Shown one piece after another: positions 34,943 to 58,847 of a stretch of DNA of 64,000 nt (position 1 is the first letter of the stretch; every line of letters begins with the position of its first letter). Made by a program: the position numbers and the translations under genes. The notes beneath the pieces are model-generated. The model ran no database searches, had not been told where the DNA came from, and was given only the letters and a program-made list of their open reading frames with translations. This DNA is from a bacterium (GTDB lineage: Bacteria > Arandabacterota > Arandabacteria > Arandabacterales > JALGWA01), in contig JASFEA010000001.1 of assembly GCA_050125095.1 (NCBI GenBank), forward strand, positions 1,389 through 65,388, in the 5' to 3' direction.

Positions 34943-35844
34943 GACGTTCATCCCACATAGCCGTCCTCATGACGGTTCTTGCCGCCCTGCTCTGGGCGAC
35001 GTCTTTCAGCGTCATAAAGGTCGGGCTGCGGAGTATCGAACCCTACACATTCCTATTCCTCAGGTTCGTCATCGCCACTGCCCTGCTTGTTCCGGGCGTG
35101 CTGGCCGCGCGCAAGGGGCGCCTTCTCCTTAAGTATATCGCGGGCAGGTACCCGGCGCTTCTCGGCCTTGCGCTTGCGGCGAGCTTCGGCTTCCAGTTCC
35201 GCGCTCAGACCGAAATACCCGCTTCAACCGCCGCCATCATCATAAACTCGAGCACCTTGCTCGTCGCGCCCCTGTCGGCCGCACTCCTTACCGAACGCAT
35301 CGGGATAAGGAAGGTCATAGCGCTGGTTCTGGGGATGGCGGGAGTGTATCTCATAACCGCGAGGTCCGCCGGAGGCGGTGCCGGTGGCACCTTGCTCGGC
35401 AATCTGCTGATATCGGCGTCGGCGGTGTCCACCGCCATATACATAGTGGTGACGAAGAAGGCGCTCAGCGAAAAGAGGCTGGAGGAATTTCCGCTTATCA
35501 CCGCCGTTTTCATCTGGACCCTGCCGGTGTATCTTGTGCTGGCCGCGCCCGCCCTTCGGCGGGGCGTGGACATTACGGGGGAGGCCTGGGTCGCCATTAT
35601 TTACCTTGCCGTTTTCTGCACGGCGCTGGCCTTCATGCTCTGGGCCAGGGCCATAAGGAGGATCGGGGCCCTCACCTCTGCCATAGTGCTGCTCTCTGAG
35701 CTGGTGTTCGGCGTGCTGATCGCCCGCATCTTCCTGGCCGAGGCGCTTCCCGTGCCGACCCTTGCCGGCTGCGCGCTCATAGGCCTCGGCATCTTCGTAG
35801 TCGGAGTGAGGGAGCAGGACGAACGGGCCTCAGTCGCCGCTTAA
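34939..35844 (+). CDS. EamA/DMT-family transporter
   Basis: Ten hydrophobic helices in two EamA repeats (LLWATSFSVIKVGL..., FCTALAFMLWARAIRRIGA). 4-nt overlap with buk. Confidence 0.75.
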   Translation: MRRSSHIAVLMTVLAALLWATSFSVIKVGLRSIEPYTFLFLRFVIATALLVPGVLAARKGRLLLKYIAGRYPALLGLALAASFGFQFRAQTEIPASTAAIIINSSTLLVAPLSAALLTERIGIRKVIALVLGMAGVYLITARSAGGGAGGTLLGNLLISASAVSTAIYIVVTKKALSEKRLEEFPLITAVFIWTLPVYLVLAAPALRRGVDITGEAWVAIIYLAVFCTALAFMLWARAIRRIGALTSAIVLLSELVFGVLIARIFLAEALPVPTLAGCALIGLGIFVVGVREQDERASVAA

Positions 35845-37713
35845 GATGTTCCTTAAGTTGTCGGTGATTTCCTCTATTTCTTCGTCCTCGAGGGCACGGC
35901 CCTGGTGTGCGAGCCGGTACAGAACCAGCCTGTAGTCTTCGCCGTCGTATATGACCGAGGACTCAGCGCCCGAACCGTCCAGCAGCTTGACGACGCCGAC
36001 CAGGCTGGGCGACGCGGGCCGCTGCACCACGGCGATGAGCGTATAGGAGGAACCCCGGCCGGCCGAGCTCATCTCTATGTTGCGCCACCTGACCTGCGGG
36101 ACTCTACTGCCCGATTCCTTCCAGTCGCCGACCGTACTGACGCCGGTCTCCACCTGCGCGAAGACCTCGTCGTCGCTGACCGTGGGCGAGAGTATGAGCC
36201 TGTCCCCGAACCGGCCCATGACCTGGCGCGTCAGGTCCGCGTCCAGGCCCCGGTCAGCCGCCATTGCCGTAATTCGCTCGGTGCGCACCCTGCGGAGCTG
36301 TCTGCCCGTCCTGTCGAATATGCGCAGGCGCGGTCCGATATCCCTCGCCCGCCTCAGCGCCTCCTCTATGGCTATAAGAATGAGCTCGTCATCGTAAGGC
36401 CCCCGGGGCGTCCCGAAAAAGGCCTCGAAATTTATCCATACGTCGATGATGGCGACTTCCTGCAAGCCCGCGGAGGCGCCGTCGCCATGCTGAACAATAG
36501 ACGGCGGGTCGGGCATAGCGGCCTCCAGCCCCTTGATCTTGTTAATCTCCTCGATGCACTTGAAGGCCTGGCCCCTGTCGTTGCCGGACGCCACGATAAT
36601 CACCTTCACATTGGACCTGCTGTGCGGATGCATGTACACCTGCGGGATGTGTATCTCGCGTTCCTCTTCGAGCATCGCGGGGCATATCTTCCTCCCGACG
36701 AGTTCCACGCCGGGCGAGAGCCTGTTGCAGGCGGGGGCCTCCTTGAAGGCGAGTATTTTCTGCACGAGTTCAACCCGATGGTCATGCGTGAGCGGCATCC
36801 CCTTGGCGTCCACGAATTCGATTCTCATGACATTGATGCCTTCGCCCGTTATGAAGGCCTTGTCGTATTTGCGCTGGTAACCGGGCGCCACTTCCTCTAT
36901 GAGCCGGAACACGTCCCCCATTGAGAGGTCGTGACCGTATGCGGCCACCGAGATGCCCGTGAGGTCTCCCGCGGGGGTGCTCACGTTGCCCGAGTTGGCG
37001 TAGATCTTCCCGGTTTCCCTGACCCCTCTTATGAATGCGAAGTTGTCATGTATCTGTTCGGCGAGGTCCTTGGGGTCCCTTTCGGTGAGGTAGGCGAAGG
37101 TCCTTGCGGCGAAGAACCGCACTGCCTCCCCCTTGCGGCCGAAGAAGGCCTGGTAGTCGGACGGGTCGCCTATCGACTTGAGCTCCTTGGCGACCAGCGA
37201 GTACTGCTCGGCCTTTCTGGTCTCCAGAATCAGCAGCTCGTCCTTGCCGGTTTCCGCGGCGGCCGCCCTTATGAGGCTCTGCTGTATCTCGCCTTCCATG
37301 CTCAGAAGGTGTTCGAACTCCTCCTTGTCGCCGGCCTCGATCTCCATGAAGACGAGGCCCACCCGCTTGTCGGGCTCGTCGATGACGATGGCCTCGCAAA
37401 AGGCGACGTTGAAGCCCTTCTCATGGAGGGTTCCTGTGCAGGAGTTGAGAAGGCCGGGCCAGTCCAGCGCCAGCACGGCGAAGGTCACAGACGGCATGCC
37501 CACGGCGTGCTTGCGCGGTTTCTCGCTTATATGAATCTGGACGCGGCCCGGGTTCTTGAGATCGCGCTCGATGAGCTCAATGGCAATGGCGAGATAGGGG
37601 GGCGGCATTTTCGCCGGGTATTTACCCGAGCCCTTTATGAGCTCGTAGGTCTTCTCTACCGTCTCCTCGTCAATGCCTTTGCCCTTTAGAATCTGCTTGA
37701 CTCTTATGAGCAA
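35830..37713 (-). CDS. ACT-domain-containing hypothetical protein (627 aa)
   Basis: ACT-like beta-alpha-beta-beta-alpha-beta segments at both ends (N-terminal VTFAVLALDWPGLLNSCTGTLHEKGFNVAFCEAIVID, C-terminal YTLIAVVQRPASPSLVGVVKLLDGSGAESSVIYD). The central about 350 aa is unassigned. Confidence 0.5.
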   Translation of the reverse strand: MLIRVKQILKGKGIDEETVEKTYELIKGSGKYPAKMPPPYLAIAIELIERDLKNPGRVQIHISEKPRKHAVGMPSVTFAVLALDWPGLLNSCTGTLHEKGFNVAFCEAIVIDEPDKRVGLVFMEIEAGDKEEFEHLLSMEGEIQQSLIRAAAAETGKDELLILETRKAEQYSLVAKELKSIGDPSDYQAFFGRKGEAVRFFAARTFAYLTERDPKDLAEQIHDNFAFIRGVRETGKIYANSGNVSTPAGDLTGISVAAYGHDLSMGDVFRLIEEVAPGYQRKYDKAFITGEGINVMRIEFVDAKGMPLTHDHRVELVQKILAFKEAPACNRLSPGVELVGRKICPAMLEEEREIHIPQVYMHPHSRSNVKVIIVASGNDRGQAFKCIEEINKIKGLEAAMPDPPSIVQHGDGASAGLQEVAIIDVWINFEAFFGTPRGPYDDELILIAIEEALRRARDIGPRLRIFDRTGRQLRRVRTERITAMAADRGLDADLTRQVMGRFGDRLILSPTVSDDEVFAQVETGVSTVGDWKESGSRVPQVRWRNIEMSSAGRGSSYTLIAVVQRPASPSLVGVVKLLDGSGAESSVIYDGEDYRLVLYRLAHQGRALEDEEIEEITDNLRNILSGD

Positions 37714-42322: not shown

Positions 42323-42352
42323 TTGACAAAAGCGGGGTTGAAGTGATAGCTT
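42323..42352 (+). promoter_or_regulatory. Promoter candidate for the hdrCBA-sdhBA operon: TTGACA-N18-TAGCTTCC
   Basis: Lies 55 nt upstream of the hdrC ATG. The same -10 octamer TAGCTTCC follows a TTGACA at 48262-48290. A perfect 7-bp hairpin (ccgggtc-gccaga-gacccgg, 42285-42304) lies just upstream. Confidence 0.35.
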
Positions 42353-42411: not shown

Positions 42412-42831
42412 ATGGGTGATACACGCGTCAGGTTGTCCAGAGACAGGGTAATGAGTGACTTCGTAAAGCGCGTAAACGAAATAAGCGGTCAGAACGTCCT
42501 CAACTGCTATCAATGCGGCAGGTGTTCTTCCGGATGTCCCCTGACCTTCGCAATGGACCTTCTCCCGAGCCAGGTGATCAGGCTCGTTCAGCTGGGTCTG
42601 GAAGAGGAAGCTCTCGAGGGAAACACGCAGTGGCTCTGCGCATCATGCCTGACCTGTCATGCAAGATGCCCCAGGGGCGTTGATCTGGCCAAGGTAATGG
42701 AGGCGCTGAGAGCTCTCAAGCTGAGGCCGGGTAAGGAAAGCCGCATAAAGATAGAGGATATTCCCAAAGAGCAGCTGGCGAAGATGCCTCAGCAGGGTAT
42801 TGTCAGTGGTTTCAGGAAACTCACCGGTTAA
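42412..42831 (+). CDS. hdrC: Heterodisulfide reductase subunit C-like (HdrC; two [4Fe-4S] ferredoxin motifs)
   Basis: CYQCGRCSSGCP and CASCLTCHARCP motifs with the HdrC-type spacing. SD AAGGAGA lies 9 nt upstream of ATG 42412. Confidence 0.8.
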   Translation: MGDTRVRLSRDRVMSDFVKRVNEISGQNVLNCYQCGRCSSGCPLTFAMDLLPSQVIRLVQLGLEEEALEGNTQWLCASCLTCHARCPRGVDLAKVMEALRALKLRPGKESRIKIEDIPKEQLAKMPQQGIVSGFRKLTG

Positions 42832-42855
42832 GAGTCAGTGTCCCAGGAGGATATC

Positions 42856-43785
42856 GTGAAGGTAGCTTACTTTCCCGGTTGTACGCTCAAGACCAAGGCG
42901 AAGGGACTCGACGACTCGGTCGTGGACACCGCCAGGGCCCTGGGGTACGACCTCGAAGAGGTCCCGGACTGGACCTGCTGCGGGGCGACATTCAACCTTT
43001 CGGTTGACAACATCATGGCCCTCGCGCCGCCCATCCGCATACTCGCCAACGCGCAACAGATAGGAAAAGAAGTCGTGACGGTCTGCGCCGGTTGCTACAA
43101 CGTCCTCAAGCGCGCGAATTACACCGTCCGGAACGACCCCGAGAAACTCCAGAAGATCACCGATTTTATCGAACTCGATTACAACGGAGATACGGAGGTG
43201 CTCCACTACCTGGAGTTCCTGAGAGACAGGGTGGGGTTCGAGAAGATATCGAAGAACTTGAAGAGGGATCTTGGCGAGCTCAAGGTCGTACCCTATTACG
43301 GCTGCCAGCTCCTGAGGCCGCATGAGGAAGTCCTCCTGGACGATCCCGAGAATCCCATGATACTGGACAACATGCTCGAGGCCATCGGCTGCGATGTCCT
43401 CGAGTTTCCGCATAAGGGCGAGTGCTGCGGCGCGTTTCTCACCGTCTGCAGCAACCTCGAGGCCCGCCTGGCCGAGCCCGGCGACAGGCCGGACAACGCC
43501 GTCAGCGACTGCTCCTACACCATAGTGAACTCGGCCGGCAAGAGAGGGGCGGACCTCATCGTTCTGTCATGCCCGCTCTGCCAGTACAATATCGATTACT
43601 CGCAGGAGCGGATCATAAAGGAGCATTACGGCTTCAAGCAGGTGCCTTCGCTTTATTTCTCGCAGCTTCTGGCGCTTGCCCTCGGCCTCGACATGAACAA
43701 GTATTCTCTTGATGATAAGCATCATTTCATTAATCCCAAAGGAGTCATAGAACAGAAAGTCCTGTCTCAACGTGAGGTAGCCTGA
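42856..43785 (+). CDS. hdrB: Heterodisulfide reductase subunit B-like (HdrB; two CCG Cys-rich domains)
   Basis: Two CCG domains (YFPGCTL...WTCCGATF...CAGCY and YYGCQL...GECCGAFL...SCPLCQYN). Proposed GTG start at 42856 is preceded by AGGAGG at 6 nt. The track ORF is from 42838. Confidence 0.8.
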   Translation: MKVAYFPGCTLKTKAKGLDDSVVDTARALGYDLEEVPDWTCCGATFNLSVDNIMALAPPIRILANAQQIGKEVVTVCAGCYNVLKRANYTVRNDPEKLQKITDFIELDYNGDTEVLHYLEFLRDRVGFEKISKNLKRDLGELKVVPYYGCQLLRPHEEVLLDDPENPMILDNMLEAIGCDVLEFPHKGECCGAFLTVCSNLEARLAEPGDRPDNAVSDCSYTIVNSAGKRGADLIVLSCPLCQYNIDYSQERIIKEHYGFKQVPSLYFSQLLALALGLDMNKYSLDDKHHFINPKGVIEQKVLSQREVA

Positions 43786-45758
43786 TGAAAAGGATAGGCG
43801 TTTTCGTTTGCTGGTGCGGATCCAATATAGCTTCTACGGTCGACGTCGGCAAGGTGGTCGAGGCCGCGAAGAAGATGCCGGGTGTCGTGCACGCGGAGGA
43901 CTACAAGTACCTGTGCTCCGATCCCGGTCAGAACATAGTACAGAAGGCGATCGCGGACCACAACCTCGATGCCGTGGTCATAAGCGCTTGCACTCCGAGC
44001 CTCCACGAGCCCACGTTCAGGAAGGCCTGCGAGCTCTCGGGGCTCAACCCCTATCAGTGCGAGATAGCCAACATCCGCGAGCAGTGCAGCTGGGTGCACG
44101 ACGATCCGGAAGCCGCGACCAGGAAGGCGGTTCTGGTCATAAGGTCGATTGTAGAGAAGGTCAAGCTCAACGAGTCTCTCGATCCGATTACCGCGCCGCT
44201 CACGAAGCGCGCGATGGTGATCGGAGCCGGCATAAGCGGCATACAGTCCGCGCTTGACATCGCCAACGCCGGCTATGAGGTCGTTCTGGTCGAGCGCGAG
44301 CCGGCCATCGGCGGCCACATGGCGCAGCTATCGGAGACATTCCCGACGCTCGATTGCTCCCAGTGTATCCTCACTCCCAAGATGGTGGAAGTAAGCCGCC
44401 ATCCCAATATCAAGCTCATGACCTACAGCGAGGTCCTTGAGGTATCCGGCTTTGTGGGCAACTTCACCGCGAAGATACTCAAGAAGCCCAGGTACGTCAA
44501 AGAAGACGTGTGCACAAACTGCGGAGACTGCTCGGACGTATGCCCCGTGGTCGTGCCCAACGAGTTCGACCGGGGCCTTTCCTCCAGGCACGCCATATAC
44601 GTGCCTTTCCCGCAGGCCGTGCCCGCGATCTACACGCTGGACGCGAACTCATGTCTCGGGCTCTTCCCGCTGGCCTGCGAGAACTGCCGCAATGCATGCG
44701 AGGTCGACGCGATAGACTATGACATGGAACCCGAGGTCGTCGAAGAGCAGGTCGGAGCCATAGTGGTCGCCACCGGCTTCGACGTCTTTCCCATCGAGGA
44801 GATCAAGGAATACGGCTACGGCAAGTGCCCGGACATAATAGACGGGCTGCATTTCGAGCGGCTTCTCTCGGCCTCCGGTCCCACGCAGGGCGAGGTCAGG
44901 AGGCCTTCGGACGGCAAGGTTCCCAAGGAAGTGGTGTTCGTCCAGTGCGCCGGCTCGAGGGACACCGAACGCGGCAAGCCCTATTGCTCCAAGATATGCT
45001 GCATGTACACGGCCAAGCACGCGATGCTCTACAAGCACAAGGTGCATGACGGCCAGGCGTATATCTTCTATATCGACGTTCGCGCAGCCGGCAAGAACTA
45101 CGAGGAGTTCTACCAGCGCGGCGTCGAAGAGGACGGGACCATGTACTTGAGGGGCAAGGCCTCCAAGATCTTCGAGGAGGACGGCAAGGTCTATGTCTGG
45201 GGCTCTGATACGCTCACGGGCAAGAAGATCGAGATAGCCGCGGACATGGTAGTGCTGGCGGCCCCCATCATCCCGAGCGTGGGCACCGCCGAGCTCGCCA
45301 AGAAGCTCAGGATCCAGACCGATATAAACGGCTTCCTCTCGGAAGTGCATCCCAAGCTCAGGCCCGTGGAAAGTATCACTGCCGGGTACTTCCTGGCAGG
45401 CGCGGGGCAGGCTCCCAAGGACATTCCGGAGGCCGTCGCCCAGGCGAGCGGCGCCGCGAGCAAGGTGCTCGACCTCTTCAGCCAGAACGAGGTGCATCAC
45501 GACCCCATGATCGTCGGCATAGACGAGGACCTCTGCAGCGGCTGCGGCGTATGCGTCGGCGTATGCCCGTACTCGGCGAGGGAGCTGGATACCGAGCGCA
45601 AGAAGGTAAGGGTGATTGAGGTTCTCTGTGAAGGCTGCGGCGCCTGCGGGGCGGCCTGTCCCACAGGGGCGGCCCAGCAGAGGAACCTGACTGACAGGCA
45701 AGTTGCGACAATGGTCGGGGCCACGCTCGACACGTTAACAGAGGAAACAGAAGAGTAA
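43785..45758 (+). CDS. hdrA: Heterodisulfide reductase subunit A-like (HdrA; FAD plus multiple Fe-S clusters)
   Basis: HdrA N-terminal 4-Cys region (GVFVCWCGSNI...CSDPG...ISACTPS...REQCSW), FAD-binding GAGISGIQSALDIA, inserted ferredoxin CTNCGDCSDVCP, and C-terminal CSGCGVCVGVCP/CEGCGACGAACP. The start overlaps the hdrB stop (TGATG). Confidence 0.85.
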   Translation: MKRIGVFVCWCGSNIASTVDVGKVVEAAKKMPGVVHAEDYKYLCSDPGQNIVQKAIADHNLDAVVISACTPSLHEPTFRKACELSGLNPYQCEIANIREQCSWVHDDPEAATRKAVLVIRSIVEKVKLNESLDPITAPLTKRAMVIGAGISGIQSALDIANAGYEVVLVEREPAIGGHMAQLSETFPTLDCSQCILTPKMVEVSRHPNIKLMTYSEVLEVSGFVGNFTAKILKKPRYVKEDVCTNCGDCSDVCPVVVPNEFDRGLSSRHAIYVPFPQAVPAIYTLDANSCLGLFPLACENCRNACEVDAIDYDMEPEVVEEQVGAIVVATGFDVFPIEEIKEYGYGKCPDIIDGLHFERLLSASGPTQGEVRRPSDGKVPKEVVFVQCAGSRDTERGKPYCSKICCMYTAKHAMLYKHKVHDGQAYIFYIDVRAAGKNYEEFYQRGVEEDGTMYLRGKASKIFEEDGKVYVWGSDTLTGKKIEIAADMVVLAAPIIPSVGTAELAKKLRIQTDINGFLSEVHPKLRPVESITAGYFLAGAGQAPKDIPEAVAQASGAASKVLDLFSQNEVHHDPMIVGIDEDLCSGCGVCVGVCPYSARELDTERKKVRVIEVLCEGCGACGAACPTGAAQQRNLTDRQVATMVGATLDTLTEETEE

Positions 45759-45773
45759 AAAGGTGAGGTAACG

Positions 45774-46556
45774 ATGGCAGCGAAGAAAGCAGCTACTAAG
45801 CCCAAGACGAAGAAGGCAGCCAAAGACGCCGGGCCCGAGATGATTCCAATTTACATCATGGGCAAAAGGTACGACGTGCCCAAGGGCCTTACCATACAGA
45901 AGGCGCTTGAGTACGCGGGTATGACGCTTCTGCGCGGCTGCGGTTGCAGGGGTGGGTTCTGCGGCGCCTGCGGTACCGTTTACAGGACCAAAGGCGACTA
46001 CAAGCTCAAGGTCGCCCTGGCCTGCCAGACCGTCGTTGAAGACGGCATGTACCTTACCCAGATACCTTTCTATCCGGCTAACAAGGCCACGTACGATATC
46101 GAGAAACTCGGGCCCGTGCTCGAGGATGTTGTGCAGTGCTATCCCGAGCTCATGCGATGCGTGCAGTGCGGGACCTGCACCAAGGTGTGCCCGCAGGACA
46201 TCGACGTGATGCAGTACATGGCGACGGCCATGCGCGGAGACATCTCCCGCACGGCCGACCTCTCTTTCGACTGCATCATGTGCGGGCTCTGCGCGAGCCG
46301 CTGCCCGGCGGAGACGGTGCAGTACTACGTGGGCATCCTCAACAGGCGCCTCTACGGCAAGTATGTCGCGCCCGCGGCCAAGCACGTGCAGGAGAGAATC
46401 AAGGAGCTTGAGGCCAGCAAGTATGATAAGGAAATCGCCGACTACATGAAGATGGACAAAAAAGAACTTCAGAAAATATACGAATCAAGAGATATCGAAC
46501 CGGAAGACCTGAGTGTGGAGCCCGCTTTGACGGCTTCCGGCGAGAAGAACGACTGA
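45774..46556 (+). CDS. Succinate dehydrogenase/fumarate reductase iron-sulfur subunit-like protein (SdhB/FrdB/TfrB-type)
   Basis: Lys-rich N-terminal tail (KKAATKPKTKKAAKD), then a 2Fe-2S-type Cys pattern CGCRGGFCGACG and two ferredoxin-type motifs CVQCGTCTKVCP / CIMCGLCASRCP. No membrane-anchor gene is nearby. Confidence 0.7.
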   Translation: MAAKKAATKPKTKKAAKDAGPEMIPIYIMGKRYDVPKGLTIQKALEYAGMTLLRGCGCRGGFCGACGTVYRTKGDYKLKVALACQTVVEDGMYLTQIPFYPANKATYDIEKLGPVLEDVVQCYPELMRCVQCGTCTKVCPQDIDVMQYMATAMRGDISRTADLSFDCIMCGLCASRCPAETVQYYVGILNRRLYGKYVAPAAKHVQERIKELEASKYDKEIADYMKMDKKELQKIYESRDIEPEDLSVEPALTASGEKND

Positions 46557-46575
46557 ATTAAGGAGGAGAGTTGAG

Positions 46576-48243
46576 ATGGCACTGCAGCCGGGAGCTGACC
46601 CTTATCCCAAGTCAATGCGTGAGACCATAAAGAAGGTCGAAGCGACCCGTTCTCGCCGGATGTCAGAGGAGTTCGACCGGATTACCGCCGACCAGAAGGC
46701 GGACCTCTTGGAGAAGTACCATCCCGACCATAAAAGGGGCGAAATGGTCGAGATAAAGGTTGGCATTAGCAAGGGCGAGAAGACTCCCAAGGAAGTCGAG
46801 AACATACTGCAGGCATATAGCCGCCTCGACCCCAAGAGCTTCGACCTCAGCCGGGTCGACTTCGATGTCGACGTGCTCGTCATAGGCGGCGGCGGCGCCG
46901 GAGCGTCCGCGGCCCTTATGGCGCATGAGCAGGGCGCCAAGGTTCTGCTCACCACCAAGCTCCGTCTGGGCGATGCCAACACCATGATGGCGCAGGGCGG
47001 TATCCAGGCCGCCGACAAGCCCAATGATCCGCCGTCGAGGCACTATCTGGACGTCATAGGCGGCGGCGGATACTACAATATCCCCGAGCTCGTGAAGGCG
47101 CTCGTACTTGACGCGCCCCGCGTCATAGACTGGCTCCAGGGGCTCGGCACCATGTTCGACAAGACGGCCGACGGTACTTACGTCACGATACACGGCGGCG
47201 GCACGTCGAGAAGAAGGATGCACGCCGCGCGCGACTACAGCGGCGCCGAGATAATGAGAACGCTGAGGGACGAGGTCCTGAACCGGGGAATAGAGGTCGT
47301 CGAGTTCACAGCGGCCATCGAACTCCTGAAGGACGATGAAGGCAAGTGCGCCGGCGCCGTGCTCTATAATATGGAAACAGAAGAGCATTTCGTCTGCCGC
47401 GCCAAGACCACGGTGATAGCCACGGGCGGCGCCGGAAGGCTCCATGTCCAGGGCTTCCCGACTACCAACCATTACGGGGCGACGGCCGACGGGCTCGTTC
47501 TCGCCTATCGCGCGGGCGCTCCGTTCATATTCATGGACGCAATTCAGTACCACCCCACCGGGGCCGCATTTCCGGAGCAGATCCTGGGGCTCCTGGTAAC
47601 CGAGAAAGTGCGCGGCATGGGCGCCCAGCTGGTCAACATCGAAGGGGATCAGTTCATTTATCCCCTGGAGACCAGGGACGTTGTTGCGTCGGGCATCATA
47701 CGCGAGTGCGGCGAGAGGAAGAAGGGCATAAGCACGAACACCGGCATGGTCGGCGTGTGGCTGGACTCGCCCATGATAGACCTGAAGCACGGCCCGGGCT
47801 CGGTGAAGCGCGCGCTTCCCGCCATGGTCCGGCAATACGAGCGCTGCGACATAGACATGACCAAGGACCCGATCCTCGTCTTCCCTACGCAGCACTACCA
47901 GAACGGCGGTGTCCTCATCAACGACAAGGCCGAGGCCGGGTTGGCGAACCTCTTCATCGGTGGCGAGGCGGCCGGCGGCATTCACGGCCGTAACAGGCTG
48001 ATGGGGAACTCGCTGCTGGACATACTCGTATTCGGCAGGCGCGCGGGACTCAACGCTGCGGCGCTTTCCAAGAAGACCAAGATAGGCAAACTCACCCTCA
48101 AGCATGTTGGGGAATATCATAAGGATCTCGAGGCGGCAGGCGTTCCGAAGGAGAAGGTCTCGCCGATGCTGCTGCCCGACTACCGCACGCCTGAGACCAA
48201 GGAGAGGCAGAAAGGCCAGGTGCCGCTGGGCGGGGCTGTCTAG
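46576..48243 (+). CDS. Fumarate reductase/succinate dehydrogenase flavoprotein-family FAD oxidoreductase (FrdA/SdhA/TfrA-like), non-covalent FAD type
   Basis: FAD motif DVLVIGGGGAGASAA, QYHPTG (cf. QFHPTG), and active-site GEAAGGIHGRNRLMGNSLLDILVFGRRAG (cf. HGANRLGGNSLLD). There is no His at the covalent-FAD position (GDANTMMAQGG). There is a 90-aa N-terminal extension. SD AAGGAGGAG. Confidence 0.75.
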   Translation: MALQPGADPYPKSMRETIKKVEATRSRRMSEEFDRITADQKADLLEKYHPDHKRGEMVEIKVGISKGEKTPKEVENILQAYSRLDPKSFDLSRVDFDVDVLVIGGGGAGASAALMAHEQGAKVLLTTKLRLGDANTMMAQGGIQAADKPNDPPSRHYLDVIGGGGYYNIPELVKALVLDAPRVIDWLQGLGTMFDKTADGTYVTIHGGGTSRRRMHAARDYSGAEIMRTLRDEVLNRGIEVVEFTAAIELLKDDEGKCAGAVLYNMETEEHFVCRAKTTVIATGGAGRLHVQGFPTTNHYGATADGLVLAYRAGAPFIFMDAIQYHPTGAAFPEQILGLLVTEKVRGMGAQLVNIEGDQFIYPLETRDVVASGIIRECGERKKGISTNTGMVGVWLDSPMIDLKHGPGSVKRALPAMVRQYERCDIDMTKDPILVFPTQHYQNGGVLINDKAEAGLANLFIGGEAAGGIHGRNRLMGNSLLDILVFGRRAGLNAAALSKKTKIGKLTLKHVGEYHKDLEAAGVPKEKVSPMLLPDYRTPETKERQKGQVPLGGAV

Positions 48244-48261: not shown

Positions 48262-48290
48262 TTGACACATGCGGTAGGGAATGCTAGCTT
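48262..48290 (+). promoter_or_regulatory. Promoter candidate TTGACA-N17-TAGCTTCC upstream of the EF-G-like gene
   Basis: Same -35 hexamer and identical -10 octamer as the hdr operon promoter candidate. Lies 70 nt upstream of the TTG start. Confidence 0.35.
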
Positions 48291-51516: not shown

Positions 51517-51898
51517 GTGCGGATCCCGCCCGGTGAGCCCAAAAACCGCGAGCGGTTCCGGCTTCGGCTTGAATCTCAAGAACCCCTGGACATGAGCGTG
51601 GGGCGTTTGCCGCTCGACGGCGCGATTAGCAGTACGAGGGTTACGGCCGGGACCGGCAGCGCCGAGACCTGGCCGCGCGCCGCTTGCTATTTCAGTGAGG
51701 CGGCACAAAAAAAAGCTTGAAAGAGCGGCCCGACTATACTAAATTCTTTCGCTGTATGCCGTCTGCCGTTGGTGCCGCCAGGAAGTGGACGGCGTTCCGG
51801 CGGATTGTGTACGGGCCCCGCCGTTAATGCCCATGGAGACAAGAAGCGTCCAGGGGTGTGACCGCGGCGGCAGTAAGACAGGAACAGAGGAATGTGCT

Positions 51899-52165
51899 GT
51901 GTTGAGCTATGAGAAGATCAGCGAGATTCTCAAGGCAATAGCGCATCCTACACGTATGGAGATAATCGTCCGGCTCAGGGAGGACGGCTGCAATGTCTCG
52001 GAGATACAGAAAAATCTCGGGCTGCCGCAGTCGACAATATCCCAGCATCTCAGAATACTGAAGAACGCTGGTGTTCTCTCGAGCCGAAGGGAAGGGACGA
52101 AGGTCTGCTACAACGTGGAGATGAAAGAAATCATCAGCATGATAGAAGCACTTGGGAGAGACTGA
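51899..52165 (+). CDS. ArsR/SmtB-family transcriptional regulator (candidate thiol/persulfide-responsive repressor)
   Basis: wHTH: LKAIAHPTRMEIIVRL...CNVSEIQKNLGLPQSTISQHLRILKNAGVLSSRREG. Cys in alpha-3 (DGCNVSE, position equivalent to BigR/SqrR Cys) and a second Cys in the wing (KVCY). The GTG/TTG start at 51899/51902 was chosen. The track ORF from 51785 is far longer than ArsR proteins. Confidence 0.7.
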   Translation: MLSYEKISEILKAIAHPTRMEIIVRLREDGCNVSEIQKNLGLPQSTISQHLRILKNAGVLSSRREGTKVCYNVEMKEIISMIEALGRD

Positions 52166-52174
52166 TTTTTTTTG

Positions 52175-52224
52175 CCCATTTCCACCGTATTATCCTAATA
52201 GACAGATTAGCCGGTGGAAGTGGT
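52175..52224 (+). promoter_or_regulatory. Imperfect 12-bp inverted repeat (CCATTTCCACCG...CGGTGGAAGTGG) enclosing TATTAT and a nested CTAAT/ATTAG palindrome: candidate ArsR operator and tusA-yeeE promoter
   Basis: Arms match 11/12 and are separated by 24 nt. Located between the arsR stop (52165) and the tusA start (52347). A -10-like TATTAT sits at 52188-52193. Confidence 0.4.
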
Positions 52225-52346
52225 GCGCGATGCGGGAGCGTCAAGCAAGCGCAGTTATGCAGCCGGATGATTCCGGCAGTATAAGGAGAAGTAAGGGAAG
52301 TGGTTTGAAACCGCCTGGTCAGATTGCCAGAAAGGGGAGGTAACAG

Positions 52347-52580
52347 ATGGACGTCAATGTTGACAAGACACTGGACTGCAAGGGCCTTTCCTGTCCCATG
52401 CCGATTCTGAAGCTCGCCAAAGAGATCAAGACGATGGAGAGCTCACAGGTCCTCGAGCTCCTTGGCACCGATCCCGGGTCCAAGGCCGATGTTCCCGGTT
52501 GGTGTGAGAAGACCGGAAACGAGTTCCTCGGTATGGAGGAAGAAGAGGGCGTCTACAAGTTCTATATCCGGAAGTCGTGA
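52347..52580 (+). CDS. tusA: TusA-family sulfur carrier protein
   Basis: 77 aa. LDCKGLSCPMPILKLAKEI contains the CPxP persulfide-carrying motif. Confidence 0.85.
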   Translation: MDVNVDKTLDCKGLSCPMPILKLAKEIKTMESSQVLELLGTDPGSKADVPGWCEKTGNEFLGMEEEEGVYKFYIRKS

Positions 52581-52639
52581 TTCGGGAAGACCTGCCGTCA
52601 CGGCAGGATAGGGCTCTGTCCACTTCGAGAAGGAGCTGA

Positions 52640-53854
52640 TTGATGGGAAACGATGAAAAGGGAGCCTGGCGCCAGCTGTGGAACACGTTCTTCGGCAAGA
52701 CATGGCCGATGTGGGCCGCAGGCATTTTGCTCGCTTTGCTCAACGTCTGTCTGTTCCTGGTTAAATCTCCATGGGGTGGAAGCGGGACGTACATTAACTG
52801 GGGGGAGAACATCTACAGCGGACTCAAGTTGTTTGGCCTCTCCGGCATCAAGCCGGTTCTCTCGCATACCTATGGCCTGCTGGGGTTGTTGACCCTGCTC
52901 GGGGCTTTTGCGGGGGCGCTGTTGGGGCGCGAGTTCGCGCTCAGGATCCCGCCGCCCGGAGAGATGTTTAAAGGGCTCCTGGGCGGCATCCTCATGGCGC
53001 TCGGTGCGACCCTGGGAATCGGCTGCACGATAGGCGGCTTCTTAAGCGGATGGGCAGCCCTCTCGGGCGGCGCCATCATCCTCGCGGTAGGATTCGTAAT
53101 AGGCACCTATATCGCCCTGCGTTATCTGCTCTGGGAGATGGAAAACCTCCCCAGGATGAGTACGGGCAAGAGCTACACCTGGCTGGCGGCTAAGGCAGGC
53201 GGCGGCGTCTGGCAACCCATACTGGGGGTTATGCTGACGGTCTTCCTTCTCGTCCTGTTCGGCCGGCGTTTCCAGAACGACAACGTACTGGCGATGTTCG
53301 CGATTATCGGCCTGGTGATCGGAATCATCCTCCAGCGTTCCCGTTTCTGCATTGTGAGGGCGTTCAGGGAGCCTTTCATGACGGGTGAATCCGAAGCCCC
53401 TCTGGGCGTCATGGTGGCGCTGGCTGTCGGGATATTCGGTTTTACCGTGATCAAATACATGGGCGTGGGCACTTCGACCCCGGGGGCGGCAAGGGTTCTC
53501 GCCATGACCTGGGTGTATCCCCACTTCTGGCTGAGGGCTCTGATCGGCGGAACCATCTTCGGCCTCGGGATGACAGTGGCCGGGGGATGCGCCATCGGCA
53601 CCATATGGAGGGCCGGCGAGGGACAGGTCAAGCTCTGGTTCTCGGCGCTCGGATTCATGCTGTTCGCCCCGATATCGAAGAAGTTCATCGTTCCGGGATT
53701 CGCCCACATTCTCCCTGAGTGGGCCCAGCAGAAAGTGTTCCTTCCTGATTGGTTCGGGTACTGGGGGGCGATGCTTTTATTCTTCGTCCTGATAGTGCTC
53801 TGGTACGTGTTCGTAAAGTGGAATGAGCGGACCGGCAGGTTTTCGGCTGTATAA
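52640..53854 (+). CDS. YeeE/YedE-family inner-membrane transporter (thiosulfate uptake, TsuA-like)
   Basis: Two YeeE/YedE repeats of about 9 TMs, with conserved Cys-containing loops LGIGCTIGGF and AGGCAIGTIWRAGEG. Directly downstream of tusA, the canonical tsuA-tsuB/yeeE-yeeD pairing. Confidence 0.8.
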   Translation: MMGNDEKGAWRQLWNTFFGKTWPMWAAGILLALLNVCLFLVKSPWGGSGTYINWGENIYSGLKLFGLSGIKPVLSHTYGLLGLLTLLGAFAGALLGREFALRIPPPGEMFKGLLGGILMALGATLGIGCTIGGFLSGWAALSGGAIILAVGFVIGTYIALRYLLWEMENLPRMSTGKSYTWLAAKAGGGVWQPILGVMLTVFLLVLFGRRFQNDNVLAMFAIIGLVIGIILQRSRFCIVRAFREPFMTGESEAPLGVMVALAVGIFGFTVIKYMGVGTSTPGAARVLAMTWVYPHFWLRALIGGTIFGLGMTVAGGCAIGTIWRAGEGQVKLWFSALGFMLFAPISKKFIVPGFAHILPEWAQQKVFLPDWFGYWGAMLLFFVLIVLWYVFVKWNERTGRFSAV

Positions 53855-53860
53855 GATGAG

Positions 53861-54382
53861 GTGAGAATGATGAGAATATTCGCACTCATATCGCTGCTTG
53901 CTCTTGTTGTGGCGCTTGCCGGCTGCGGGGGCGCGGGGACCGAAGGGAGAGGGCCCGCTGCATGCTCGGACGCCAAGGAAATGGTCGCCCATGCGAGGGC
54001 GGGAGTGGACGAGATACTGATCGACGAGTTCAATGCCCTGCTGGATAGCGATGAGTACTTCACCATTATCGACGTTCGCGAGCCGGACGAGTACGATGAA
54101 GGGTGCATCCCCGGCGCAATCAACATCCCGCGCGGCATATTGGAGTTCAAGATCGCCGACGAGAAGTACTGGGACAGCGAAGGCCTGTTCGTGCCCGAGA
54201 AGGACGAAGTCTTAATCGTCTACGGCCACAAGGTAGACCGCGGCGTGCTCGCGGCTGAGTCGCTGGTAAGGCTCGGTTACGGCAATGTCAGGCATCTCTA
54301 CGGGGGATGGGTCGTGTGGACCGAGGGTCCGGAGGCTGTGGAAGTAGAGGAAGTGGTTGAAGAGGGCGGTTGCGGAGGCTAG
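53861..54382 (+). CDS. Rhodanese-homology-domain lipoprotein lacking the catalytic Cys (predicted inactive)
   Basis: Lipobox LAGCGG. Single rhodanese fold (IDVREPDEYDEGCIPGAINIP...LIVYGHKVDRG...LYGGWVVW). The active-site loop has Gly where Cys is expected (DNA tac ggc cac). Ends with EEGGCGG. Confidence 0.7.
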   Translation: MRMMRIFALISLLALVVALAGCGGAGTEGRGPAACSDAKEMVAHARAGVDEILIDEFNALLDSDEYFTIIDVREPDEYDEGCIPGAINIPRGILEFKIADEKYWDSEGLFVPEKDEVLIVYGHKVDRGVLAAESLVRLGYGNVRHLYGGWVVWTEGPEAVEVEEVVEEGGCGG

Positions 54383-54586
54383 CCGGCCGACCCGCGGCAG
54401 CCGGGCAGACAGCAGAACGTGAAATAAAGCATGAATGGATGTAGTAGGTGTCGAGATAGAGCGTTGGCCTGCGGAATGGAATTAAAAAGGGGGTATCGTG
54501 GCCGGTTCCCAAGGGGACCGATTCCGCTCTGCAGCAGATTCAAGGATGGGTTAATCGGCAGTGGACCGCTTAATAGGAGGACAACA

Positions 54587-55555
54587 ATGAGAAGTGCGGC
54601 CAGATATTTCCTGGTCTCGATGGCCCTGGTGGCTGTGATCCTGGCCGGTTGTTCCGAGAACACGACCGCGCCCGGAGGTGACGCTTCAGCCACCCTGCGA
54701 GCCTATCTTGAAGACAATGATCTTGACCTTCCCGACATTCTAACCAGCTGGACAATACTGGCTTCCGAAGTGGAGACGAATCCCGCGGCATACTACATCA
54801 TGGACATCCGTCCTGACACGACGTATGCGAGGGGGCATATCGCCGGAGCCGTCAATTCCACGCTTGGCGATATCCTCGACGACGCGGCCAATAGCGGCGG
54901 CAAGCCCATAGTCGTCGCCTGTCTCACGGGCCAGTCCGCGGGGCATGCGATGTTGGCTCTGCGCTTGAGCGGATACCCCGACGCCAGGATCCTGAAGTGG
55001 GGTATGAGCTCGTGGAATGAGGACTTCGACAAGTGGACGGCCAACACCGCCAGTATCGCGGTGGGTCACTCAAACTGGTCTATGGACGCGACGCCGTCCC
55101 CGGGCACCTATGATTATCCGACGCTGATTACCACCGCCACCGACGGGCCGGGCATTCTGGCCGAGCGCGTGGAGGAAATGCTGTCCGGCGGCTTCAAGGG
55201 TGTAGAACCCGACGACGTTCTCGAATCGCCCGGAGACTACTATATCAACCTCTACTGGGAAGAGGATGACGTCACGACTTTCGGTCACATAGACGGCGCT
55301 TACAGGATACAGCCGCTCAGCCTGGCCGGCGACACGTTCAAGCACTACGACCCGGATGAGACCGTCGTCACGTACTGCTGGACGGGTCAGACCTCGTCAG
55401 TGATCACGGCGTACCTCAATATACTCGGGTACGACGCCAGGAGCCTCAAGTTCGGGGCCAATGCGCTCATATACAGCGAGCTGACCAAGCAGTACTGGGA
55501 AGGCTCAGAGGATTTCGAATACACGGTCTCATCACTGGCCTCGATGGCTGAGTGA
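54587..55555 (+). CDS. Tandem-rhodanese-domain lipoprotein (both domains with active-site Cys)
   Basis: AGGAGG lies 6 nt upstream of ATG 54587. Lipobox ILAGCSE. Domain 1 loop VVACLTGQSAG, domain 2 loop VTYCWTGQTSS. The track ORF extends to 54431. Confidence 0.75.
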   Translation: MRSAARYFLVSMALVAVILAGCSENTTAPGGDASATLRAYLEDNDLDLPDILTSWTILASEVETNPAAYYIMDIRPDTTYARGHIAGAVNSTLGDILDDAANSGGKPIVVACLTGQSAGHAMLALRLSGYPDARILKWGMSSWNEDFDKWTANTASIAVGHSNWSMDATPSPGTYDYPTLITTATDGPGILAERVEEMLSGGFKGVEPDDVLESPGDYYINLYWEEDDVTTFGHIDGAYRIQPLSLAGDTFKHYDPDETVVTYCWTGQTSSVITAYLNILGYDARSLKFGANALIYSELTKQYWEGSEDFEYTVSSLASMAE

Positions 55556-55670
55556 GCGGTTGTTGAGGGCGAGACCAACAGGAACTGTAAGTAAGCGATC
55601 AAGTGATGGTTCATAAGAGAGTGACAGTAGGGCCCGAAGAACTTCGGCTCGTGTCGAAAGGAGAGGGACT

Positions 55671-56714
55671 ATGAGGAAGCCGTGGATCTTGCTGCTGATT
55701 GCAGCGCTGGCTTTACCCGTGGCGGCATCGGGGCAGGGTTGCATGGGGGGTGGATCCGAGGAAGGCGTGAACGTCATAGGGTTCATTCAGCCTCAGTTTG
55801 AGTATCATCCGAATTACGATGACAGCGACCTGTCGGAGCTGACTTTCACATTCCTGAGAGCGAGGCTGGGCGTGACGGGCACTGTTCCCTATGACATCAG
55901 CTACTACTTCGTGATGGAGTTCGGTCCGTTTATGTCGGGCGAGCCGCCGTACATGCTTGACGCGTTCATAACTTATACGCGCCTGCCCTACGCGAATATC
56001 ACGTTGGGGCAATATAAGCAGCCTTTCAGCATGGAGAGGAATATCGCGTGCCATAAGCTGCATACGGTACGACGGGCGAATTTCGTAGAAGCGCTGGCAA
56101 TGGACAGGGACATAGGCCTCATGGCTTTCGGAGAAGTGGCGGAGGGACTCAACTACCACCTGGCATTGATGAACGGCACCGGGAAGAACACGGAAGACGA
56201 CAACAAGGGCAAGGATATTATCGGCCGCGTGACCTATGAGCCGATGGCGTACGTCACACTCGGGGCCGGATTCGTGTCGGGCAACTCCGCGACCGATGTG
56301 GAAGGCGCCGACGACAACACCAAGACGAGATACGGGGCCGATATCGAAGTGCGCTACAGGGACTTTCTTGCTCAGGGCGAGTACATATACGGCAAGGATG
56401 TGGGGGCCTATACGGAAGGCGGAGGCTGCGGCGGCGACCCGGTGGTCAAAGAGGGCTCCATCAAGAGAGACGGCTACTTCATCCTGCTGCTCTACAGGAC
56501 GGAGTATAACCTCGAGCCCGTGGTCAAGTACGAGAGATACAATGCGGACAAAGACGATGCCGAAGACGTGTGGCACGCCTGGACCTTTGGATTCAACTAC
56601 TTCATGAACGACTGGACCAGGATTCAGGCCAATTACATTCGCAGAATAGAGGATTTCGTGCCCGCGCTGAACAACGATGAATTCGTGGTCCAGTTGCAGG
56701 TGGTAATGCAGTAA
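55671..56714 (+). CDS. Anion-selective porin of the OprO/OprP (Porin_O_P) family
   Basis: Signal peptide. LRARLGVTG, LALMNGTGKN and C-terminal ...TRIQANYIRR... match the phosphate/polyphosphate porin family. 16-strand-sized barrel. Confidence 0.65.
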   Translation: MRKPWILLLIAALALPVAASGQGCMGGGSEEGVNVIGFIQPQFEYHPNYDDSDLSELTFTFLRARLGVTGTVPYDISYYFVMEFGPFMSGEPPYMLDAFITYTRLPYANITLGQYKQPFSMERNIACHKLHTVRRANFVEALAMDRDIGLMAFGEVAEGLNYHLALMNGTGKNTEDDNKGKDIIGRVTYEPMAYVTLGAGFVSGNSATDVEGADDNTKTRYGADIEVRYRDFLAQGEYIYGKDVGAYTEGGGCGGDPVVKEGSIKRDGYFILLLYRTEYNLEPVVKYERYNADKDDAEDVWHAWTFGFNYFMNDWTRIQANYIRRIEDFVPALNNDEFVVQLQVVMQ

Positions 56715-56761
56715 GGACGACGTTGTCATGCAGATGATGCCTGAAAGGAAGGAGGTCTGAC

Positions 56762-57628
56762 GTGAAGAAGTTGAGCCGTTACGCGGCGATACTCGTCATG
56801 TCGCTTTTGGTTTCGCAGGCGGCACTTGCCCAGCTCGTGACAGTCGACGAGCTCGCAGAGATGATGGAAAAGGGCGAAGTGGTCGTTGTGTCGGCGAGAT
56901 CGCCCAAGGACTATGAGAAAGTGCATATACCGGGCGCCGTGAATCTCTGGCACAAGGACCTGTATAAAGAGGGCGATATCCAGGCGCTTCTTAAGAGCCC
57001 CGAGGAGATAGCGGAAATACTCGGAAGCCTGGGGATAAGCGCGGATAAGACCATCGTCGTCTATGACAGCGGCAAGGCCAAATTCGCCGGGCGGATTTAC
57101 TGGATTCTCAAATACATGGGCGCACAGGACGTCAATATACTCGACGGCCATATGAAGATGTGGCGGAAGGGGCGCAAGCCGGTCACCAAGGATGTAACGG
57201 AAATTACCGCGGCCGAGTTCGTCCCCGCCCCGGTGAATTCGATTTACGCGTCGATAGATTACGTGAAGTCTCATCTCGGCAAGCCGGATTTCGTGTTGCT
57301 CGACGCCAGAGCCGAGGATGAATACGACGGCAAGAAGGGCGAGACCAAGAGGAAGGGGCATATACCCGGGTCTGTGCGCCTGGATTATGTGGAAGTCCTG
57401 AATGAGGACGGCACCATGAAGTCGAAGGCCGACCTCACCAAGGTCTTCGCCGACGCCGGGATCACACCCGACAAGGATGTTGTCATATATTGCGAGACAA
57501 GCGTGCGCGCGGGAATCGTGTTCCTGGCCCTGGACTCTATACTCGGTTATCCCAAAGTCAGGGTGTACGACGGCGCGCTGTATGAATGGTCCGCCGATGC
57601 CGGCAATGAGGTCGAAGCAAAGAAATAG
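56762..57628 (+). CDS. Periplasmic two-domain rhodanese (thiosulfate sulfurtransferase-like)
   Basis: GTG start. Signal peptide ILVMSLLVSQAALAQ. Inactive N-domain (VVYDSGKAKFAG) plus catalytic C-domain with a 6-residue loop IYCETSVRAG, as in TST/SseA-type enzymes. Confidence 0.8.
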   Translation: MKKLSRYAAILVMSLLVSQAALAQLVTVDELAEMMEKGEVVVVSARSPKDYEKVHIPGAVNLWHKDLYKEGDIQALLKSPEEIAEILGSLGISADKTIVVYDSGKAKFAGRIYWILKYMGAQDVNILDGHMKMWRKGRKPVTKDVTEITAAEFVPAPVNSIYASIDYVKSHLGKPDFVLLDARAEDEYDGKKGETKRKGHIPGSVRLDYVEVLNEDGTMKSKADLTKVFADAGITPDKDVVIYCETSVRAGIVFLALDSILGYPKVRVYDGALYEWSADAGNEVEAKK

Positions 57629-57654
57629 AACGGCCTGGAAGGGAGACAACCTAA

Positions 57655-58014: not shown

Positions 58015-58044
58015 AGTGGTCTCTAGTTGTAGGAGGAACGCAGA

Positions 58045-58832: not shown

Positions 58833-58847
58833 CGGAGGATACGCGAG

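Follow-up and report, generated by a model that had tools for sequence, protein, structure and literature searches.

Fumarate reduction is usually bound to quinones and membranes. Miura et al. 2008 reportedly described a soluble, NADH-dependent enzyme of five subunits for this reaction in Hydrogenobacter thermophilus, where it is quinone-free and serves a reductive tricarboxylic acid (TCA) branch; its genes are said to be scattered in the genome, and we know of no report that it bifurcates. An NADH dehydrogenase/heterodisulfide reductase, FlxABCD-HdrABC, is said to have been described by Ramos et al. 2015. Here, we analyzed five consecutive genes, hdrC-hdrB-hdrA followed by genes for an iron-sulfur subunit (FeS) and a flavoprotein (Flav), in a 64,000-nucleotide stretch of DNA from a bacterium of the Arandabacterota (assembly GCA_050125095.1, contig JASFEA010000001.1, positions 1,389 to 65,388 of the forward strand), hereafter the window. 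On balance, we lean towards reading them as a cytoplasmic fumarate reductase coupled to heterodisulfide reductase (Hdr) and probably electron-bifurcating.

The locus resembles the thiol:fumarate reductase TfrAB of Methanothermobacter (described by Heim et al. 1998, as cited in PMC6315080), a cytoplasmic, anchor-free enzyme in which an SdhA-like flavoprotein is joined by an Fe-S/CCG protein. What TfrB fuses in one chain is present here as three polypeptides, scoring 38.3 (FeS), 41.7 (HdrB-like), and 26 bits (HdrC-like) against the TfrB model NF004898 (cutoff, 385). The window also adds HdrC and HdrA, and Flav has an additional N-terminal domain of 95 aa; beyond position 425 of 546, the TfrA profile finds no match in it. 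The window bacterium is not expected to have CoM-SH and CoB-SH, the thiol donors of TfrAB. The Hdr part is like that of MvhAGD-HdrABC (5ODC), the electron-bifurcating heterodisulfide reductase of methanogens: HdrA is full-length, HdrB has the 10 cysteines, HdrC has two [4Fe-4S] motifs, and one related locus (L004) even has mvhD-mvhG-mvhA between hdrA and FeS. In contrast to that complex, the window operon has no adjacent MvhD or hydrogenase, its proteins stay under the equivalog cutoffs, and the proposed acceptor would be fumarate, through FeS and Flav, and not CoM-S-S-CoB. In its working, the closest analogy for the system would be a hybrid between TfrAB and Mvh/Flx-HdrABC.

In P. thermosuccinogenes (Pseudoclostridium), a "succinate operon" responds as a unit to CO2 limitation; its genes are those for fumarase, seven Flx-Hdr proteins, two subunits of fumarate reductase, and a putative transporter. 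Addition of H2 abolishes succinate formation in this organism (PMC7282089). A coupling of fumarate to ferredoxin reduction was proposed for it in a preprint (Koendjbiharie & van Kranenburg 2019, as cited in PMC7282089). The same proposal was made for tubeworm symbionts (Endoriftia), in which tfrAB is interspersed with flx-hdr (PMC6315080); expression in these symbionts supports the Hdr-Flx and reductive TCA genes, with tfrAB itself off the shared expression pattern (PMC11636981), and a 2026 survey still terms Hdr-linked fumarate reduction a suggestion (PMC13147460). The window operon shares with the succinate operon an hdrABC set beside a two-gene soluble fumarate reductase, and its Clostridial relatives have the same layout (fumarase or aspartase, seven hdr/flx genes, FeS, Flav, and transporter). 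It differs from it in having no flxABCD, mvhD, fumarase, or aspartase beside it, in the order of its hdr genes (hdrC-B-A versus hdrB-C-A), and in its HdrB, which belongs to another clade than the Clostridial Flx-type. An HdrB-like CCG protein (SdhE) also partners an SdhAB-type pair in type E succinate:quinone oxidoreductase (SQR)/methylmenaquinol:fumarate reductase (MFR) (SdhABE), as in FrdABEF of Syntrophobacter fumaroxidans, a fumarate-induced enzyme with no subunit in the membrane (PMC5947623). Unlike the window system, SdhABE and FrdABEF are quinone-linked, membrane-peripheral, and without HdrA or HdrC, and the window HdrB scores 156.6 bits against the MFR SdhE model NF042965 (cutoff, 500).

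The concept is already published as a hypothesis, and the window operon is a donor-less five-gene variant of this proposed, biochemically uncharacterized kind. What is new here is how widespread and how conserved the family is, its modular donors (including an Mvh version), the aspartase/transporter and methylmalonyl-CoA contexts, and the clade structure of HdrB. The concept is unlikely to surprise a specialist; it offers a clean, testable answer to the question of what bacterial HdrABC reduces.

Classification of the five subunits

Flav matches Pfam FAD_binding_2 (PF00890) with 235.8 bits (cutoff, 20.4) over residues 99-480; Succ_DH_flav_C (PF02910) found no match in Flav, whose C-terminal region is much shorter than that of SdhA. 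A preliminary description of this DNA, made from the sequence alone, had noted that the protein keeps two substrate-site motifs and lacks the histidine for covalent FAD, and the alignments bear this out. QYHPTG lies at residues 324-329 and HGRNRLMGNSLLD at 470-482, and Asn135, invariant across the Flav family, aligns with His45 of E. coli SdhA, the 8-alpha-N3-histidyl covalent-FAD site. Flav is predicted to bind FAD non-covalently. By alignment and motif to 1nek_A, Flav H326, T342, E343, R367, H440, and R474 are the equivalents of E. coli SdhA H242, T254, E255, R286, H354, and R399. These six catalytic or dicarboxylate-binding residues are invariant in 56 homologues, save T342, which is conserved in at least 90%.

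The best curated NCBIfam model for Flav was TfrA (NF004900), with 333 bits (cutoff, 718) over profile positions 7-425. The SdhA/FrdA models followed with 278 (PRK07803; cutoff, 819) and 258 bits (TIGR01812; cutoff, 567), the NadB model TIGR00551 reached 261 bits (cutoff, 452.75), and the MFR SdhA model NF042982 reached 191.5 bits (cutoff, 1100). In a Foldseek search with the AlphaFold model, SdhA/FrdA chains were best (E ~1e-30 to 1e-24) and NadB ranked 47th. AprA was absent from the 25 best NCBIfam, 50 best Foldseek, and 53 PDB sequence matches. Model scores, Foldseek rank, and PDB matches therefore led us to reject an identity of Flav as NadB or AprA; the clustering with either that the preliminary description had named as speaking against its reading was not found.

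The N-terminal extension of Flav, put at 90 aa before and measured here at about 95 residues, is conserved across the Flav family and specific to it. It is modeled by AlphaFold with a pLDDT of ~85-95 (whole model: pLDDT, 81.8; pTM, 0.85). A search with the extension alone among 1.84 billion representatives returned only N-termini of Flav family members and fragments; no other protein context was present in that set, so it gives no clue to a role.

FeS carries a [2Fe-2S] site of the form CX4CX2C...C (Cys58/63/66/84) and two full four-cysteine CxxCxxCxxxCP motifs (residues 129-140 and 167-178), the cluster content announced in the preliminary description. The label "SdhB-like" given there holds for the order of the clusters and fails for the family model. 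The C-terminal motifs imply two [4Fe-4S] clusters and not the SdhB set of [2Fe-2S], [4Fe-4S], and [3Fe-4S]; the dhsB model TIGR00384 gives 29.4 bits (cutoff, 88), Fer2_4 is matched by all 13 FeS homologues and Fer2_3 by only 4 of them, and the similarity to Wolinella FrdB is remote (E = 3e-7). On these scores, FeS was rejected as a true member of the SdhB family. Its N-terminus is a Lys-rich tail of ~22 aa, probably translated, since a good Shine-Dalgarno-like sequence (AGGTGAGG) precedes the upstream ATG at 45774; its C-terminal tail is acidic. The Lys-rich tail had been called histone-like, a resemblance of composition only, and it was rejected as a family feature because it is confined to the window and the nearest relative (L001).

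The HdrC-like protein has two [4Fe-4S] motifs (C32xxCxxCxxxCP and C76xxCxxCxxxCP) and scores 69.5 bits with CoB_CoM_SS_C and 71.5 bits with qmoC, each under its own cutoff. The HdrB-like protein contains two Pfam CCG stretches, the predicted sites of two non-cubane [4Fe-4S] clusters; its alignment with HdrB chains of solved structure (8rvv_B, 133 bits; 5odc_B, 122 bits) spans the whole protein and shows all 10 of their cluster-binding cysteines conserved. The HdrA-like protein aligns with 5odc_A, the HdrA of the crystallized MvhAGD-HdrABC, at 714.5 bits (residues 3-639 to 5-641), and its length and domain order are those of the methanogen bifurcating HdrA. Because this alignment is full-length, we consider that it has the whole domain set of a bifurcating subunit: the N-terminal, thioredoxin-reductase-like FAD, inserted ferredoxin, and C-terminal ferredoxin domains were matched, predicting FAD and multiple [4Fe-4S] clusters. 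NCBIfam HdrA2 gives 834.6 bits (cutoff, 1100) over profile positions 1-643 of 777, leaving the MvhD-like extension of that model uncovered, so that there is no fused MvhD domain; a further equivalog gives 624 bits (cutoff, 1400). In a neighbor-joining tree, the window HdrB groups with those of HdrA-less hdrC-hdrB-FeS-Flav clusters and of L004, apart from the Clostridial Flx-type clade.

Distribution of the family and conservation of hdr synteny

A scan of species-representative genomes with Flav confirmed at least 598 loci. The counts below refer to the best 80 of these (L numbers) or to the 56 among them whose upstream sequence reaches 7 kb or more. The family spans Bacteria and Archaea, at least several hundred species-level genomes, many of them of animal-gut Clostridia, and is annotated at present in generic terms only ("FAD-binding protein"). 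Its cultured carriers include Sporomusa rhizae, Clostridium lacusfryxellense, Christensenella tenuis, and Desulfofundulus thermobenzoicus. Its members are 60-66% identical between Bacillota, WOR-3, Armatimonadota, Chloroflexota, Thermoplasmata, and Bathyarchaeia, and the nearest named relatives among the matches listed are from Candidatus Eisenbacteria (77-80% identity).

The FeS gene is present in all 80 loci, directly upstream of Flav in 79, and hdr genes lie on the same strand in 46 of the 56 well-flanked loci. In 28 of these 46, HdrABC is accompanied by Flx; 11 have HdrABC, 4 just HdrBC, and 3 just HdrA. In WOR-3 and Latescibacterota, FeS-Flav does not lie next to hdrBC. The synteny that the preliminary description had suggested searching for is thus not unique to this contig and recurs in Bacillota, Chloroflexota, Armatimonadota, Fibrobacterota, Thermoplasmata, and Bathyarchaeia. 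The order of the genes varies, with FeS-hdrC-hdrB-hdrA-Flav in L002 and L003 and FeS-Flav-hdrC-hdrB-hdrA-mvhD in L026. Since the synteny is conserved and the gene orders interleave, assembly juxtaposition can be excluded and a functional unit is favored. A chance or misassembled association of hdr with FeS-Flav was rejected on the conserved synteny and on the base composition, which is even across the operon region.

Two Armatimonadota-type metagenome-assembled genomes (MAGs) carry the fuller array hdrC1-hdrB1-?-FeS-hdrC2-hdrB2-hdrA-Flav (L002:1876-9641 and L003:1989-9635). Their two hdrCB pairs fall in two separate HdrB clades and may represent separate thiol-oxidizing and disulfide-reducing sites. 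HdrA-like open reading frames (ORFs) of ~1490-1600 aa near FeS-Flav in some Bacillota and Chloroflexota (L018:1218-5687, L047:2-4846, and L022:12932-17410) presumably combine HdrA with additional redox modules in one fused chain.

Metabolic neighbors and donor modules in relatives

Among the recurrent neighbors, genes for the alpha and beta subunits of class I fumarase were found in 23 and 22 loci, respectively, and aspartate ammonia-lyase in 13; the latter family (c12) had been considered as fumarase C, which was rejected (648.9 bits with the aspartate ammonia-lyase model; cutoff, 510). Malic enzyme (7 loci), malate dehydrogenase (5 loci), succinyl-CoA synthetase (SucCD; 5 loci), 2-oxoacid:ferredoxin oxidoreductase (Kor), and an AspT/YidE/YbjL-type transporter (18 loci) recur as well. 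A fumarate-forming lyase or hydratase (class I fumarase or aspartate ammonia-lyase) is encoded in 38 of the 80 loci, and at least one C4/TCA gene in 50. Because these neighbors recur and the dicarboxylate site is intact, fumarate/succinate can be predicted with high confidence as the substrate pair.

Two loci (L006:1-13646 and L013:72-8010) have hdr-FeS-Flav in arrays with fumarase, succinyl-CoA synthetase, methylmalonyl-CoA mutase (and its B12 subunit), epimerase, carboxyltransferase, and malate dehydrogenase, which together are predicted to form a complete succinate/propionate (methylmalonyl-CoA) pathway. Aspartate ammonia-lyase stands ahead of Flx-Hdr-FeS-Flav in animal-gut and other Clostridia (L030, L036, L039, L042, L045, L046, L048, L064, L067, L069, L075, L078, and L079), and in 9 of these 13 loci an AspT/YidE/YbjL-family transporter follows the cluster. 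In gut Clostridia, this context suggests an aspartate-to-succinate route with fumarate as a quinone-free electron sink.

The donor side appears to be modular. Clostridial and Sporomusa loci have the order (aspA or mdh)-hdrB-hdrC-hdrA-mvhD/flxD-flxC-flxB-flxA-FeS-Flav-(transporter or fumAB), in which mvhD/flxD-flxCBA is predicted to be the FlxABCD NADH-input module. A MAG (L004:1-9635) has ten tightly packed genes, fumA-fumB-hdrC-hdrB-hdrA-mvhD-mvhG-mvhA-FeS-Flav; this methanogen-type [NiFe] Mvh hydrogenase with Hdr and FeS-Flav implies, as far as gene content can tell, H2-driven fumarate reduction. FlxABCD for NADH and MvhADG for H2 would be, accordingly, exchangeable donor modules in the relatives. 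Loci of Peptococcaceae, Ammonifex, and Desulfofundulus have hdrC-hdrB-FeS-Flav only. In the window, L001, and L013, the layout is hdrC-hdrB-hdrA-FeS-Flav, and no donor module adjoins it.

Proposed mechanism and alternatives

FeS and Flav very probably constitute a fumarate reductase, and the probability that they are functionally linked to Hdr is equally high; whether the three together truly bifurcate is, judged from the genes, an even question. In the mechanism that we infer, with its physical complex, its bifurcation, its route through HdrB, and its direction of reaction, FeS-Flav would be a soluble two-subunit enzyme in which Flav, with non-covalent FAD, would reduce fumarate to succinate and FeS would wire it via one [2Fe-2S] and two [4Fe-4S] clusters. 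A two-electron donor (NADH via Flx or H2 via Mvh in relatives) would reduce the FAD of HdrA, and this flavin would split the electron pair. One electron would travel uphill to ferredoxin through the ferredoxin domains of HdrA, and the other downhill from HdrC through the non-cubane clusters of HdrB, FeS, and the FAD of Flav to fumarate, which would take the place held by CoM-S-S-CoB in methanogens. The fumarate/succinate couple has an E0' of about +30 mV, and by our own calculation with standard potentials, 2 NADH with fumarate and two one-electron ferredoxins is exergonic by about 40 kJ. A capacity for bifurcation is favored by the full-length HdrA match, by the conservation of both HdrB cluster sites, and by MvhD/FlxD with FlxCBA in Clostridial relatives. 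In its most specific form, the five proteins would be one soluble supercomplex in which the HdrB clusters act as a relay, no disulfide is reduced, and fumarate is the high-potential acceptor, a version that we put forward tentatively and with some doubt.

If this supercomplex relay existed, it would represent a bifurcating enzyme of a new class, quinone-free anaerobes (including aspartate-fed gut Clostridia) would conserve energy from fumarate reduction, and the purpose of "bacterial Hdr" in these lineages would be answered. A soluble Hdr-wired reductase would also explain how quinone-free anaerobes form succinate (or propionate via methylmalonyl-CoA) and run reductive TCA branches, with a possible gain of reduced ferredoxin. 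This bears on the old question of the role of HdrABC in organisms without CoM and CoB.

Several points weigh against a Hdr-coupled, bifurcating fumarate reductase in the window. No C4-metabolism genes were found among the window neighbors of the operon, and no MvhD, Flx, or hydrogenase genes lie within 42412-48243 or directly flank it; since the donor module is not adjacent, the five genes alone cannot make a complete bifurcating enzyme. FeS-Flav has no hdr genes nearby in 10 of the 56 well-flanked loci, and 8 loci have hdrBC without hdrA, so that the reductase does not strictly need HdrA, or Hdr at all. The route would require the HdrB clusters to pass electrons to a protein and not to a disulfide. 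None of the operon proteins reaches the curated cutoff of a reductase or Hdr equivalog, and for this reason we do not regard the system as orthologous to TfrAB, complex II, NadB, or type E SQR. The P. thermosuccinogenes enzyme (CDQ83_RS03320-25) is equated with the Flav family by matching gene count and order only, and the literature that we searched contained no biochemical test (purification or assay) of a Hdr-linked fumarate reductase. The cytoplasmic, Tfr-like, possibly bifurcating reductase of the preliminary description thus stands as far as classification, synteny, and neighbors support it; orthology to TfrAB does not (333 versus 718 bits), and bifurcation is the part of it that we hold conditionally.

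The disulfide chemistry of HdrB could, alternatively, be part of the reaction. In a split thiol:fumarate reductase, with HdrC-HdrB-FeS-Flav acting in the manner of methanogen TfrAB, HdrB would oxidize a bacterial thiol or protein dithiol, the electrons would pass through FeS and Flav to fumarate, and HdrA, with a donor, would re-reduce the disulfide as a real intermediate. Synthesis of CoM or CoB is not known from these organisms, which counts against such a cycle, as does the single HdrCB pair of the window, where the same site would need to form the disulfide as well as cleave it. On the other side, the complete disulfide-reductase site is kept in HdrB, the window HdrB clusters with those of the eight hdrC-hdrB-FeS-Flav loci without hdrA, and the two hdrCB pairs of L002 and L003, one beside FeS and one beside hdrA, are what separate oxidizing and reducing sites would lead one to expect. 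The NCBIfam TfrB model is matched by the HdrC-like protein (131-221), the HdrB-like protein (259-474), and FeS (184-212); since each matches a part of the profile, the three together cover what TfrB fuses, in line with the earlier remark that the TfrB parts are separate here and HdrA is added. Carriers of the DsrC type have been put forward for links of this sort (PMC11636981, PMC5947623), but no DsrC, thioredoxin, GcvH, or LbpA-type carrier was present among the annotated families of the 80 loci or inside the window operon. We rate this scheme as unlikely, though serious. It is improbable that the system is a non-bifurcating ferredoxin (or other donor):fumarate oxidoreductase, in which HdrA would take electrons from reduced ferredoxin and no energy would be conserved. 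Such an enzyme would suit the window, L001, and L013, where MvhD, Flx, and Mvh are not adjacent, and the two ferredoxin-type domains of HdrA; it would waste ~480 mV, and HdrA is of the full bifurcating type, has NADH or H2 modules attached in relatives, and could be served in trans by MvhD and further HdrA/Flx-like genes 10 kb downstream.

Operation as a succinate dehydrogenase, for example in syntrophic propionate oxidation, would need confurcation with reduced ferredoxin to NAD+, H2, or disulfide, and we consider it very improbable. Non-covalent FAD is typical of fumarate reducers and not of succinate oxidizers. Moreover, succinate (+30 mV) and ferredoxin (~-450 mV) would average ~-210 mV, too positive for NAD+ or H+ at standard conditions, and the aspartase/transporter context of gut Clostridia and the succinate-producing P. 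thermosuccinogenes favor fumarate reduction. This direction would fit the methylmalonyl-CoA pathway operons of L006 and L013, the relatives in syntroph-containing groups (Desulfofundulus and Syntrophomonadaceae), and the reversibility of SdhA/FrdA-type enzymes in vitro (PMC5947623). We give almost no credence to a different substrate (that of an L-aspartate oxidase-like or other enoate reductase) or to a chance or misassembled neighborhood. NadB has the same catalytic residues, its 261 bits are not far under the 333 of TfrA, and aspartase is a frequent neighbor; these 261 bits fall well short of the NadB cutoff (453), and the structural rank is 47th. The aspartate oxidase alternative is weak because nadA- or nadC-like families were not seen among the annotated recurrent neighbors of the 80 loci and because NadB has no Fe-S partner, yet FeS is found in 80 of 80. 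Chance and misassembly are excluded by hdr synteny across many phyla in both domains and by a continuous composition. A fumarate reductase coupled to Hdr remains the reading that we prefer.

Operon layout and other features of the window

The coordinates of the five genes and of other features are collected in Table 1. All five ORFs lie on the forward strand, in one operon as first described, and the earlier spacing of 1 to 20 nucleotides (nt) is essentially right: successive genes are separated by 6, -1 (a 1-nt overlap), 15, and 19 nt. No convincing transmembrane segment was found in the five proteins, and no SdhCD/FrdCD-type anchor genes lie in the operon or directly flank it, which agrees with the absence of a membrane anchor noted before. 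The flanking genes are tolQ, upstream of hdrC on the opposite strand (divergent spacer, 215 nt), and an EF-G-family gene 115 nt downstream of Flav; the 36 kb upstream of the operon hold envelope and hydrolase genes. An AAGGAG Shine-Dalgarno-like sequence lies 8 nt ahead of the hdrC ATG. The candidate promoter ahead of hdrC (TTGACA, 18-nt spacer, TAGCTT) is nearly identical to an element, TTGACA-N17-TAGCTTCC, ahead of the EF-G-family gene, and both score under the threshold of the consensus promoter scan. Because similar promoter-like elements precede hdrC and the EF-G-family gene, we read the five genes as probably their own transcription unit; a terminator scan downstream of Flav gave nothing informative. 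The two elements also hint at the -10 consensus of the lineage (17-18 nt spacers, TAGCTTCC).

Table 1. Positions of the operon genes and of other features in the window
Feature	Position	Strand	Basis or remark
hdrC-like gene, 139 aa	42412-42831	+	ORF list, profile matches
hdrB-like gene, 315 aa	42838-43785	+	ORF list, profile and structure-chain matches
hdrA-like gene, 657 aa	43785-45758	+	ORF list, profile and structure-chain matches
FeS (iron-sulfur subunit) gene, 260 aa, FrdB/TfrB-N-like by cluster order	45774-46556	+	ORF list, motifs
Flav gene, 555 aa, FrdA/TfrA-like catalytic subunit	46576-48243	+	ORF list, profiles, alignment
Candidate promoter of hdrC	42323-42352	+	~60 nt before hdrC; read from sequence
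Promoter-like element ahead of EF-G-family gene	48262-48290
Second Hdr-type cluster	51785-64000	+	runs past window end
MvhD gene of second cluster	58392-58832
C25 (gingipain-type) peptidase, 1181 aa	26162-29707	+	type IX secretion C-terminal sorting domain
Long ORF	35830-37713	-	no Pfam match at E <= 1e-5
Long ORF	12475-14844	+	no Pfam match at E <= 1e-6
Long ORF	19543-22611	-	no Pfam match at E <= 1e-6
Long ORF	14982-16181	-	no Pfam match at E <= 1e-6
Long ORF	6144-7559	+	no Pfam match at E <= 1e-6

The second Hdr-type cluster lies amid sulfur-trafficking genes, in the order ArsR, TusA, YeeE/YedE, rhodanese, rhodanese, porin, double rhodanese, DsrE-like, MvhD, a 442-aa QmoA/HdrA-like protein, a 566-aa QmoB/HdrA-like protein, FlxC-like, and FlxB-like. 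On another contig with the same 442-aa protein, the genes go on with MvhD, a 1020-aa HdrA-like protein, and another MvhD. MvhD and Flx-like genes occur in the window only from 58.4 kb onward, and, from its gene content, this cluster could be either an in-trans supplier of the MvhD/donor function or an unrelated sulfur-linked system.

Elsewhere, the window encodes a peptidase with a type IX secretion sorting domain, a feature in keeping with a lineage of the FCB group such as Eisenbacteria, and the contig probably stems from an Eisenbacteria-like lineage. It also encodes five long ORFs (399-1022 aa) unmatched in Pfam (Table 1), of which the 627-aa one lies directly beside the Tol-Pal/YbgF cluster.

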